Notes under the pieces: model-generated
Told to the model about the DNA's origin: nothing
Database searches by the model: none
Seen by the model: the letters and a program-made list of their open reading frames with translations, nothing else
Shown: positions 15,617-32,000 of the stretch, piece after piece
How positions within the stretch are numbered: the stretch's first letter is position 1
How the letters are laid out: each line of letters opens with the position of its first letter
Origin: Candidatus Saccharimonadota bacterium
GTDB lineage: Bacteria; Patescibacteriota; Saccharimonadia; Saccharimonadales; Saccharimonadaceae
DNA length: 32,000 nt
NCBI GenBank assembly: GCA_016700015.1
Contig: CP064995.1
Coordinates: 900,001 to 932,000, forward strand
Reading direction: 5' to 3'
Made by a program: the position numbers and the translations under genes

Positions 15617-16250
15617 AGTTGCGCTACGCGCATTTTACGAAACACATAAAGACAACTACTATACTCGACGTGATTCGAATGACGTCGGGTTATGGGACGA
15701 ACAGTACAAGTGGGCTATATTGCCATCACTCAACGCACAGCTTGCAGACTTTAGCGACATTAGTCGAGCAAATGTCGCGAATTTTATCTCGATTATTAAT
15801 AGCAACTCAAACAAAAGTAATTTCACTCACTGGATTGACATGGACGACCTTACGTCACTTGCGGAATTACCTTACGGTAACCAGATACTAGATATTGTCT
15901 GGAGCACAAAGCCTAGTAATGTAAGTGAAGCAATTGATACAGCCAACAATATATCGAACTCATTCGCTCCCCACAAGAAGTTCAGCCCATCAACGTGGGG
16001 CTATATTCTTGCCGCAAAAGACTGCTCGTCATTTGCCGTTTATCGGGAAGTCATAATGAAGAGACTTGTCGATATTAACCAACCGGCAAAGGCGAAGGGT
16101 CTGACTCAGGGCGAAAAGTACGAACTACTTAATGCATCAGCTAGGTTTCTCGGCGAGCTGATGTCTAGCGATAATGGTGATGCATCGTATCGGTATCAGG
16201 CGCTTAATGGGCAAGACTTTCTGTGGGTCACTTTGACCTACGCTACTTAA
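15603..16250 (+). CDS. Hypothetical protein, probably co-translated with the upstream nuclease-like gene
   Basis: The ORF is open from 15570. AAGGAG (15592-15597) lies 5 nt before GTG 15603, and the gene overlaps the upstream stop. I cannot assign a family. The features EQYKWAILP and a C-terminal GQDFLW are noted but uninformative. Confidence 0.55.
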   Translation: MEINKVALRAFYETHKDNYYTRRDSNDVGLWDEQYKWAILPSLNAQLADFSDISRANVANFISIINSNSNKSNFTHWIDMDDLTSLAELPYGNQILDIVWSTKPSNVSEAIDTANNISNSFAPHKKFSPSTWGYILAAKDCSSFAVYREVIMKRLVDINQPAKAKGLTQGEKYELLNASARFLGELMSSDNGDASYRYQALNGQDFLWVTLTYAT

Positions 16251-17515
16251 ACGACTTTTAGTGTACCGTTCTTGATGGCAATCTTGTCATGAATGCCGCC
16301 CGCGAACGCAGTCTTTTCTGTCTCAGTCCCATCACGAAGCACGTAGCGCGAGTATTCGACAAGTGGTGAAGCAAGTGTGACCTCGACACCATGCTGTGTT
16401 AGCACGCTGCGAGATATCATGTGATGTTTTTCGATTTTCCCTTGTAGCTTAGCACTAACATGAAGGCTTCGAGGATGTTTAACGATGAAATCCTCAAGCA
16501 GTTCACAGACGACGTCCTGGTTGAGGTATTTTTCGGTGCATTTCGTATTTATCTTACGAGTGCAGTTGTAATATACGAAGCGTTTGTATGCACCTGTTTT
16601 CTTGATGAGTTTTATTTTTTCCTGTGCAGTCATTTCCGACCCGCACTGCCCACATTTTAGTAGTCCTCGAAAGGCGAATGTTTTTGTGCCCCATTGACCA
16701 CAATATGTTCCTCGCGATTGTTGCACCTCATCCCACAACTCCTTTGTGACGAGTGGCTTGTGCGCTCCGTCGTACCAAGGGTTGTCCGGACCTTCTGGGT
16801 ACTGAAACCTGCCGTAGTAGAAGGGGTTAATGAGCATGGCGAGTATGCTACTGAGCGGTACCGACTTTCCGGTGCGGGTCGTAATATTTTGCGAGTCTAA
16901 CCATACTTTCAATTTCCGCCCGCTCCAGCCCTGTGCTGCTTTATGGAACATCTCTGTGATGATTTCAGCACGTTCAGGGTCGGGGATGATGTCGGCAACT
17001 CCCCCGAATGATCTGTTGATATACCCGAGCGGTGCTGTGCCCGGTCGCCACCCCATTTCGCATTTCGTCCGTATGCCTCGTTTCACGTTTATACTTTTAT
17101 TATCGTTCTCTAGCTTGGCCTGCGAGCAAAGAATCATGAGCAAAAACTTTTCATTTGGACTATTCGTGAAGGTTTGTGAGTAGGTGCGGATGTGAAGCAG
17201 CTTGTGCTGATCCATGAGATCAACAATTGAGCCAAGGTCACCAGCGTTGCGGCTTAGTCGATCTGGTGCCCATGTAAGAATTGCGTTATATTTCTCACTT
17301 TCTATTTCTGCGAGCATCTCATTATATAGTGGTCGCTGTCCGGAGTCTTTCGCTGAGTGGCTTTCATGTTTTTCGCATACTACGTTTAGGCCTTCTGCTT
17401 CTGCGAGTGCACGCATTTCGTTAATTTGAGAATCGATTGACATTGCCTGTCGCTCGTCGCTCTCTGAGCTTTTTCGAGCGTACAGACAATAGGTGAGTTG
17501 GTTGTTCTTTTCCAT
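16247..17515 (-). CDS. Large serine recombinase (resolvase catalytic domain + recombinase domain + zinc-ribbon)
   Basis: The N-terminal catalytic motif is YCLYARKSSESDERQAMSIDSQ. The recombinase domain reads GYINRSFGG...YYGRF. The Cys cluster is CGQCGSEM...YYNCTRK..KC. The ORF-track start at 17527 is a TTG, so ATG 17515 (MEKNN) is preferred. Confidence 0.9.
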   Translation of the reverse strand: MEKNNQLTYCLYARKSSESDERQAMSIDSQINEMRALAEAEGLNVVCEKHESHSAKDSGQRPLYNEMLAEIESEKYNAILTWAPDRLSRNAGDLGSIVDLMDQHKLLHIRTYSQTFTNSPNEKFLLMILCSQAKLENDNKSINVKRGIRTKCEMGWRPGTAPLGYINRSFGGVADIIPDPERAEIITEMFHKAAQGWSGRKLKVWLDSQNITTRTGKSVPLSSILAMLINPFYYGRFQYPEGPDNPWYDGAHKPLVTKELWDEVQQSRGTYCGQWGTKTFAFRGLLKCGQCGSEMTAQEKIKLIKKTGAYKRFVYYNCTRKINTKCTEKYLNQDVVCELLEDFIVKHPRSLHVSAKLQGKIEKHHMISRSVLTQHGVEVTLASPLVEYSRYVLRDGTETEKTAFAGGIHDKIAIKNGTLKVV

Positions 17516-17523
17516 TGCAAGGT

Positions 17524-17556
17524 ACAAGGTACCGCGTAACAGAGGTAAAGTCTAGT
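17524..17556. repeat. 33-bp repeat, copy 1: ACAAGGTACCGCG-N7-GGTAAAGTCTAGT
   Basis: The 13-nt arms are identical to those of the copy at 18845-18877, and only the 7-nt centre differs (TAACAGA vs AGGGGTG). It lies immediately upstream (minus strand) of the recombinase start. Confidence 0.75.
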
Positions 17557-31324: not shown

Positions 31325-31353
31325 TTGTAATTGATAGCTTACGACTCTATAAT
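31325..31353 (+). promoter_or_regulatory. Sigma70-like promoter giving an apparently leaderless transcript
   Basis: TTGTAA (31325-31330), a 17-nt spacer and TATAAT (31348-31353) are present. The ATG at 31360 lies 7 nt after the -10 box, and there is no SD. Confidence 0.55.
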
Positions 31354-31359
31354 GAGCTT

Positions 31360-31809
31360 ATGAGCAAGGGAAGCCCAGAGGATAAACGAAAACACCTGGA
31401 GATGATCCAGGCTGTTATATCGCGTATGGGCTCGAATTCATTTCTATTTAAGGGGTGGTCAATAACCATTATCGCCGCAGTTTCTGCGTTCGCAGGCAAG
31501 GAGAGCGACCACACTTTGATGCTCATTCCTGTCGTTTCAACACTTTTATTTTGGGCTATTGATGCTTATTATCTTATGAATGAAAGGGCATTTCGTAAGT
31601 TATACGAGAAAGTAGCGGCGACCGACCCAAGTGACATAGACTTCGCCATGACTCCCGCAAAAGAATATATCGGTTTCAAAAACTGGCTGAAGACGCTAAA
31701 GACCACGATTCTTAGTCTATTTTACGGTGTCGTGCTCATGTTATTGATATTCTTAATCTTCGCAATAAATAACATAAGCTTGGAGGTGTTGATACACTAT
31801 GGTGCGTAA
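31360..31809 (+). CDS. Small 3-TM membrane protein (149 aa), partner of the downstream TIR gene
   Basis: The hydrophobic segments are WSITIIAAVSAFA, LMLIPVVSTLLFWAIDAYY and ILSLFYGVVLMLLIFLIFAI. The 3' end overlaps the next ORF by 11 nt. Confidence 0.6.
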   Translation: MSKGSPEDKRKHLEMIQAVISRMGSNSFLFKGWSITIIAAVSAFAGKESDHTLMLIPVVSTLLFWAIDAYYLMNERAFRKLYEKVAATDPSDIDFAMTPAKEYIGFKNWLKTLKTTILSLFYGVVLMLLIFLIFAINNISLEVLIHYGA

Positions 31810-32000
31810 GGTATTTTTTAGTTTTCACTACAAACCAGATAATTGGCGTGCAGCACAGGTACGCAGTATCGGCGTAGTCGAAGGTAATAACCCTGTTTCT
31901 GATAACGACTGGGAGGACATCGCAGATGGTGGTGACGATGCAATTGAAAAATGGATAAACGACCAGATGTCTGGAAAAAGCTGCGCAGTAGTCTTGGTTG
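31799..32000 (+). CDS. ThsB-like TIR domain protein (DUF1863/TIR-like), 3' end outside the window
   Basis: This ORF is not in the ORF track because it is truncated. GGAGGTG (31783-31789) lies 9 nt before ATG 31799. The translation MVRKVFFSFHYKPDNWRAAQVRSIG...DWEDIADGGDDAIEKWINDQMSGKSCAVVLV parallels the N-terminus of Thoeris ThsB (..RVFFSFHY....R.N.VRN...) as I recall it. Confidence 0.7.
   Translation, partial: MVRKVFFSFHYKPDNWRAAQVRSIGVVEGNNPVSDNDWEDIADGGDDAIEKWINDQMSGKSCAVVLV

Follow-up and report, generated by a model that had tools for sequence, protein, structure and literature searches.

A probable type V Thoeris operon at the edge of a low-GC defence island in a Saccharibacteria-type genome

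Results and discussion

Two overlapping genes, thsF and thsB, at the end of a 32,000-nucleotide stretch of DNA from Candidatus Saccharimonadota bacterium (the window; GenBank assembly GCA_016700015.1, contig CP064995.1, positions 900001-932000) very probably form a type V Thoeris anti-phage operon. The operon is situated at the edge of a defence island of low GC content, and the Saccharibacteria-type genome around it, about 1 Mb in size, is a single contig of 1,011,181 bp with a completeness of 99.3 %. Type V Thoeris consists of the TIR protein ThsB and of ThsF, a 'DUF2270'-type protein with three transmembrane (TM) segments (Yirmiya et al., bioRxiv 10.64898/2025.12.03.692087, December 2025). 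Validation was reported for two systems, one from Bacillus thuringiensis DAR 81934 and one from Bacillus sp. 1NLA3E (bioRxiv 10.64898/2025.12.03.692087). For type V homologues, defence in B. subtilis, infection-dependent synthesis of a cyclic ADP-ribose (cADPR) isomer, 3'cADPR, a toxicity specific to 3'cADPR and inhibition by the Tad1 sponge were reported (bioRxiv 10.64898/2025.12.03.692087). At the locus itself, homology, operon anatomy, conserved residues, the absence of another ThsA-type effector and a conserved pairing of the two genes were observed; phage defence, signal synthesis, toxicity and the ring model would be carried over to this pair from its homologues. A first-pass annotation, made from the raw sequence alone, had suggested that ThsA is replaced here by a small membrane protein lacking a SLOG or Macro domain, possibly a membrane-disrupting effector, the two genes making up a minimal Thoeris-like pair; it thereby recognised a Thoeris architecture formally described only in the preprint of December 2025.

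Identity of the putative effector

The first gene of the pair, thsF (31360..31809, plus strand), codes for a protein of 149 aa with three TM segments, the candidate effector. The validated ThsF of B. thuringiensis DAR 81934 was located by way of its ThsB in Tables S1 and S2 of the preprint: an exact match (P0270) was obtained, the locus was fetched, and the next gene downstream, of 141 aa, is the validated ThsF (P0390). The window ThsF and P0390 are 40 % identical over 136 aa (E 5e-38), a similarity that points to the type V architecture for the pair proposed in the first-pass annotation. The PADLOC model PDC-M50A (PDLC04686) was matched by the window ThsF with an E value of 7.9e-43 and by P0390 with 1.8e-48. 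An exhaustive profile search assigned 5,309 representatives of 50 %-identity clusters to the ThsF family at E <= 0.001; the family is far larger than its Pfam label suggests.

Other identities for the membrane protein, namely SLATT, holin and SpoIIM-like (the last from one JGI name), had zero profile support and were dropped; the Pfam scan of the 149-aa protein gave no SLATT family at E <= 1. The ThsF-type TM module was also met as the C-terminal domain of two longer proteins, P0174 (378 aa) and P0152 (362 aa). The N-terminus of P0174 is a SLOG cluster2 domain (E 1.7e-15), while the N-terminal 220 aa of P0152 had no Pfam match. The fusion in P0174 fits a role of the TM module as an effector.

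The TIR partner

The second gene, thsB (31799..32000 in the window, plus strand), is open at the window end, so that residues 1-67 of its product lie inside. The sequence past this end was examined as locus L002, in which the next 14 kb downstream were annotated; here thsB closes at window-equivalent position 32290 and codes for 163 aa (L002 3800-4291). The product starts with MVRKVFFSFHYKPDNWRAAQVR. Its likeness to the TIR domain of ThsB, noticed in the first reading of the sequence, was borne out by profile searches: Pfam ThsB_TIR (PF08937) was matched with E 4.2e-11 by the 67-aa window fragment and with E 3e-28 by the full gene product, and in PADLOC the models ThsB PDLC00433 (E 1.1e-74) and PDC-M50B (E 7.2e-63) were matched. 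Like the match of ThsF to PDC-M50A, the ThsB_TIR and ThsB matches are far above chance level. The window TIR is 40-42 % identical to two TIR domains tabulated as 'DUF2270 - Type V' (preprint Table S1), 39 % to a type XI TIR and 34 % to the type I ThsB of B. cereus MSX-D12. In an alignment with known ThsBs, E80 of the window TIR is invariant within a motif W-x-x-(Y/H)-E-(I/L), and it aligns with the Glu of the W-x-x-Y-E-I motif in B. cereus MSX-D12 ThsB. With type I Thoeris in mind, we take this Glu to be the catalytic residue of ThsB. A ThsB-type TIR that carries the Glu of the catalytic motif is thereby encoded in the same operon as the candidate effector. Plasmids searched by tblastn with the B. 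thuringiensis ThsB gave related TIRs, in the setting of type I and type II systems, and no ThsF.

A two-gene operon without a canonical ThsA

The 149-aa three-TM reading frame and its 11-nt overlap with the TIR gene (31799..31809 by the ORF coordinates) were present as the first-pass annotation had described them. The overlap is consistent with translational coupling of the two genes, and a GGAGG Shine-Dalgarno motif for thsB was read from the sequence within the 3' end of thsF (31782..31786, plus strand), 12 nt ahead of the thsB ATG. On the other side, a convergent ORF on the minus strand (window-equivalent 32274-32918, L002 4275-4919) shares 17 nt with the 3' end of thsB. In the whole genome no match to SIR2_2 or Macro was found and only one to ThsB_TIR, which is the thsB of the window. 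Because the downstream gene is convergent, SIR2_2 and Macro are missing and ThsB_TIR occurs singly, the operon is one of two genes, thsF-thsB, in a genome without a canonical ThsA. The suggestion of the first-pass annotation that the true ThsA might lie beyond the window end had to be given up, as no thsA was found downstream or elsewhere in the genome; in particular, no SIR2-type ThsA is among the ORFs of the 14 kb downstream. Neither the SIR2-SLOG ThsA of type I nor a Macro and TM effector as in type II is present, and the 149 aa of ThsF leave no room for a Macro domain.

Conserved pairing of thsF with TIR genes

Homologous loci were collected by a pattern-based scan with one genome per species. 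The 56 loci obtained span Saccharibacteria, other Patescibacteria, Actinomycetota, Bacteroidales, Clostridia, Rhodobacteraceae, a metagenome-assembled genome (MAG) of Helicobacteraceae, Verrucomicrobia, Poribacteria and an archaeon. Conservation of the TM protein beside TIR genes, on which the first-pass annotation had made its proposal depend, was found throughout this range: 48 of the 56 loci have a TIR-like ORF on the thsF strand within 150 nt, the partner in 2 of the 48 being an NDT-like/STING-like protein, and a further 3 loci have a same-strand TIR-like ORF within about 600 nt. The TIR partner is either of the short FFSFHY type or of a type of about 230 aa ('MGRKIFVSYKY'), which also passes PF08937. 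Of the 12 Saccharibacteria loci L003-L014, 10 share the 11-nt overlap between thsF and thsB; the TIR of L006 and L008 is of another kind.

At least two TIR genes were found around one thsF in 10 loci. Two or three distinct TIR genes flank a single thsF in L021, L023, L024, L035-L037, L039, L043, L046 and L048, loci of Actinomycetota and Bacteroidales, and resemble in this respect the multi-ThsB arrangement of other Thoeris types. Such loci bear on the question of which protein is the effector. In a system without signalling, the TIR itself would deplete NAD+, and the membrane protein would serve as sensor, anchor or regulator. The limitations section of the preprint allows for a TIR as effector in unverified configurations (bioRxiv 10.64898/2025.12.03.692087), and TIR NADase effectors are known from CBASS, Pycsar and pAgo systems. 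The observations on a homologue speak against it, since externally added 3'cADPR was toxic only to cells with the system and defence was lost with the Tad1 sponge, which indicates a diffusible signal acting on ThsF. Likewise, several loci with two or three TIR genes per ThsF match the Thoeris pattern of many sensors and one effector, and the fusion of the TM module to a SLOG ligand-binding domain in P0174 is as expected for an effector module. A TIR acting as the effector is improbable under these circumstances, and ThsF is kept as the effector of a type V system.

Two other arrangements were encountered in the collection. In the Rhodobacteraceae loci L041 (6404-7459) and L052 (6385-7440), the ThsF homologue is followed by a 351-aa protein instead of ThsB. 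The N-terminus of this protein weakly resembles a nucleoside 2-deoxyribosyltransferase (E 0.004), and its match to a prokaryotic STING domain was sub-threshold (E 5e-6; 26.9 bits at a cut-off of 27.1); a sensor of another kind may here act through the same TM effector. In L045 (5998-6843), a single ORF of 281 aa matches both ThsF (E 8e-25) and TIR (E 1e-15), and a second TIR lies 511 nt downstream; the ORF is either a ThsF-TIR fusion or an assembly frameshift.

Predicted anatomy of ThsF

The AlphaFold2 (AF2) monomer of the window ThsF (pLDDT 84) has helices at residues 6-47, 51-87, 106-113 and 116-136: an N-terminal helix runs into TM1 (6-47), TM2 continues into a cytoplasmic extension (51-87), and a short helix (106-113) precedes TM3 (116-136). 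Hydropathy peaks (KD19) were located at about 33-46 for TM1 (1.54), 53-72 for TM2 (1.65) and 117-136 for TM3 (2.86). The hydrophobicity of TM1 is merely moderate, AF2 still placing it in the long helix 6-47; three membrane helices, as in the type V effector, are seen by hydropathy and AF2 together. Lys and Arg residues number six in residues 1-32 and eight in residues 73-116, with none in the C-terminal tail, and this distribution suggests an N-in/C-out topology.

Conservation was evaluated over 104 members of the ThsF family that are 32-47 % identical to the window protein. R22, D68 and E75 are invariant, and K9, H12, L13, Q17, N26, S27, F28, K31, G32, W33, F64, W65 and L72 are conserved in at least 90 % of the members. 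All these invariant or near-invariant residues belong to the N-terminal helix or to the cytoplasmic end of TM2, TM3 being variable. In the model, the conserved patch on the predicted cytoplasmic side would bind a nucleotide-derived ligand, in agreement with the basic pockets described in the preprint. An AF3 model of ThsF showed a homo-heptameric ring with basic inter-protomer pockets (bioRxiv 10.64898/2025.12.03.692087), and by analogy a homo-oligomeric ring with such pockets is predicted for the window ThsF. R22, D68 and E75 are obvious targets for mutagenesis at the presumed ligand site.

Arguments against the assignment and the nature of the signal

Several points weigh against a type V system as described so far. 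Type V Thoeris is known from a single preprint. ThsF is labelled DUF2270 there, and the window ThsF reached 13.7 bits with the DUF2270 model, below the cut-off of 25. A family-profile sequence search yielded no relative in the PDB at E <= 10, and the AF2 monomer, compared to the PDB with Foldseek, had nothing below E 0.4, just generic helical hairpins. The window TIR and the B. thuringiensis ThsB match different PADLOC ThsB models (PDLC00433 versus PDLC00430), and the window TIR is in a different clade from the 3'cADPR-making B. thuringiensis protein. The type V system of Bacillus sp. 1NLA3E was not triggered by exogenous 3'cADPR, and the signal may differ by variant (bioRxiv 10.64898/2025.12.03.692087).

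As to the label, all Pfam matches of the window ThsF were sub-threshold: 8xMP with E 0.001, DUF3278 with E 0.0011 and DUF2270 (PF10028) with E 0.049. The validated B. thuringiensis ThsF had no DUF2270 match at E <= 0.1, and among the 104 diverse family members weak matches to DUF2270 were obtained for 15, to DUF3278 for 28 and to 8xMP for 7. A search with PF10028 for a bona fide DUF2270 protein found none in five homologue-bearing genomes and none in the 301 genomes of the order to which the genome with the Bacteroidales locus L043 belongs. Judged by these profile matches, DUF2270 is a loose label in the preprint; what counts for membership is homology to the validated ThsF.

The identity of the signal is the main uncertainty of the favoured reading. 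For the product of the window ThsB we lean towards 3'cADPR, the most likely candidate because both the validated B. thuringiensis type V system and the type I ThsB clade, which the window TIR resembles, use it as their signal. It is possible, if rather doubtful, that the type V logic is kept with a TIR signal other than 3'cADPR (2'cADPR, canonical cADPR or another ADP-ribose derivative) and that the pocket of the Saccharibacteria-type ThsF is tuned to it. This would be in line with the unresponsive strain 1NLA3E, one of the two validated type V systems, and with the position of the window TIR outside the B. thuringiensis clade. The related TIRs of type XI, also of the FFSFHY type, were reported to produce no known signal (bioRxiv 10.64898/2025.12.03.692087), and the 39 % identity of the window TIR to a type XI TIR is similar to its identity with the TIRs listed as type V. 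On the other hand, the candidate pocket residues K9, R22, N26, K31, D68, E75 and R79 are all kept in comparison to the 3'cADPR-responsive B. thuringiensis ThsF, and the type I ThsB of B. cereus, of the same FFSFHY clade, is established as a producer of 3'cADPR. If a different signal were true, the operon would be a sub-type of type V that differs in mechanism and works in an obligate episymbiont, expressed from a conserved leaderless promoter.

Promoter and leaderless transcription

A near-consensus promoter, TTGTAA-17-TATAAT, had been proposed ahead of the membrane protein gene. It is present as a sigma-70-type promoter at 31325..31353 on the plus strand, with the -35 hexamer TTGTAA at 31325-31330, a 17-nt spacer and the -10 hexamer TATAAT at 31348-31353, and in the promoter scan its hexamers matched 10 of 12 consensus positions. 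The ATG of thsF at 31360 starts 6 nt past the -10 hexamer. It is the sole in-frame start codon ahead of K9, H12 and L13, three residues that all close relatives share, and no Shine-Dalgarno motif was found upstream of it. The distance of 6 nt between the -10 hexamer and the ATG predicts a leaderless thsF mRNA. Promoter-like sites in the region numbered 2 at a shuffle mean of 5.0; since the count is not above that of the shuffles, the weight of the promoter rests on the quality of the site and on its conservation in relatives rather than on the count.

All 16 Saccharibacteria-type loci L003-L018 have a best promoter-like site with 8-10 of 12 matches, the -10 hexamer of which ends 6-9 nt ahead of the aligned ATG. 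A Shine-Dalgarno-like tetramer near the thsF ATG was seen in one of the 16 (L005), and the sequence between the -10 hexamer and the ATG varies among them. The same layout was found in L022 and L030 (9 of 12 each) and, weaker, in L050 (7 of 12). As background, 3,431 plus-strand ATG triplets of these loci were scored at that spacing: 3.7 % reached at least 8 matches, 1.05 % at least 9 and 0.32 % at least 10. Several of the compared loci are near-identical, and the independent lineages amount to roughly a dozen. The leaderless start proposed in the first-pass annotation thus gains good comparative support from the recurrence of this layout. Read-through from the upstream operon may also occur, as the window scan detected no terminator-like site between 31194 and 31325.

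A further conserved element was noticed in the relatives. In L003-L013 and L022, the motif AGCATAAGC is conserved about 20-45 nt upstream of the thsF -35 hexamer and often forms an inverted repeat with a downstream TTATGCT. Many Saccharibacteria-type thsF loci and the locus of the Helicobacteraceae MAG have it; the region upstream of the window thsF lacks it. The element may serve as an operator, or else as a terminator for the gene before it.

Genomic context

The operon follows a series of mobile and defence genes. Upstream are a large serine recombinase (16247-17527, minus strand), a ParB-methylase and a small-terminase-like gene, and after those a type I restriction-modification system, an AbiP2-type reverse transcriptase, a DUF2779/Cas4-like nuclease and two small genes. 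Over the segment from roughly 14 kb in the window to roughly 35 kb window-equivalent, the GC content is down to about 0.44 from about 0.51, with values of about 0.42-0.48 in the island and about 0.50-0.53 in the flanks. No tRNA was found in the window or in the next 14 kb. ThsF was detected in none of 90 genomes of the same genus and in one of 60 others of the order, and thsF is for this reason regarded as an accessory gene, presumably mobile. Ultra-small genomes of the Saccharibacteria type carry type V Thoeris sporadically, within an island.

The convergent ORF downstream of thsB codes for a Zn-ribbon-like protein with four Cys and a weak C-terminal HTH_17 match (E 2e-4, below the cut-off); the island may use it as a regulator or in an excisionase-like role. 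Beyond it and outside the operon is an ORF of 192 aa (window-equivalent 32902-33480, L002 4903-5481) without a Pfam family at E <= 0.01. A GNAT gene, a split SDR gene and a gene for a P-loop kinase-like protein come further downstream, before housekeeping-type genes that are, from their translations, IMPDH-like and polyprenyl synthase-like. The SDR gene is divided into two overlapping ORFs of 170 and 85 aa (window-equivalent 34870-35621, L002 6871-7622) and is probably a frameshifted pseudogene.

Decay of this kind nearby would suit an inactive remnant, or a cassette with a function other than defence, e.g., a membrane gene, holin-like or other, that belongs to a mobile element. The cassette itself displays the opposite: both ORFs are intact and of full length compared to their homologues, the catalytic Glu and every family-invariant residue of ThsF are present, and the promoter, the overlap and the Shine-Dalgarno architecture are kept as in the relatives. 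We therefore consider a remnant or non-defence gene pair highly improbable and retain the type V operon as the preferred reading.

In the validated locus of B. thuringiensis DAR 81934, thsB-thsF adjoins a Gabija-like pair (OLD-TOPRIM/AAA_15 and UvrD helicase), and a 271-aa gene without Pfam or PADLOC match is located upstream.

Proposed mechanism

The operon appears to have a promoter of its own, from which a leaderless mRNA would be made, with thsB translated by coupling via the internal GGAGG motif and the 11-nt overlap. By analogy to the homologues, the TIR protein ThsB, with E80 as its presumed catalytic Glu, would detect phage infection and convert NAD+ into a cADPR isomer. ThsF, inserted in the N-in/C-out orientation, would assemble into a homo-oligomeric ring and bind the signal in basic pockets on the cytoplasmic face, where the conserved residues K9, H12, Q17, R22, N26, K31, D68, E75, R76 and R79 are expected on the pocket side. 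The bound signal would open or disrupt the membrane and lead to growth arrest or death before phage progeny is formed, i.e., to abortive infection.

Comparison with known systems

In the Thoeris family, the type I system has a ThsB TIR of the same clade as the window TIR, and its signal, 3'cADPR, is probably shared by the window system. The type I effector is the SIR2-SLOG NADase ThsA, whereas the window effector is not an NADase. Type II (TM-Macro) and the type VII and CBASS SLATT and other TM effectors share with the window system the activation of a membrane-spanning effector by a small-molecule signal and abortive infection. Unlike the Macro- or SLATT-type effectors, ThsF itself would have to form the ligand site.

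Within the literature library searched, no paper linked Thoeris to defence in Saccharibacteria and none mentioned PDC-M50, the candidate system of PADLOC-DB v2 whose components A and B are matched by the two window proteins. PDC-M50 is a computational candidate only, with no mechanism attached.

The closest relatives are the validated type V systems. With these the window operon shares the two-gene composition of a TIR and a three-TM protein of about 140-150 aa, the lack of SLOG, Macro and SIR2 domains and the location in a defence island. The gene order differs, thsF preceding thsB with an 11-nt overlap in the window and thsB preceding thsF in B. thuringiensis. The TIR is a 163-aa protein of the FFSFHY clade in the window, whereas the B. 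thuringiensis ThsB has 252 aa with an N-terminal extension. The validated systems are from Bacillus; the window system belongs to a Saccharibacteria-type host with a genome of about 1 Mb and has an apparently leaderless promoter. In Saccharibacteria, the conserved leaderless-promoter architecture and the 11-nt overlap are features of the lineage. The biological additions are modest and will not surprise a specialist: the kind of system is already known from one preprint and from the earlier PADLOC candidate PDC-M50, and the window pair is a Saccharibacteria-type instance of it with minor lineage-specific features.

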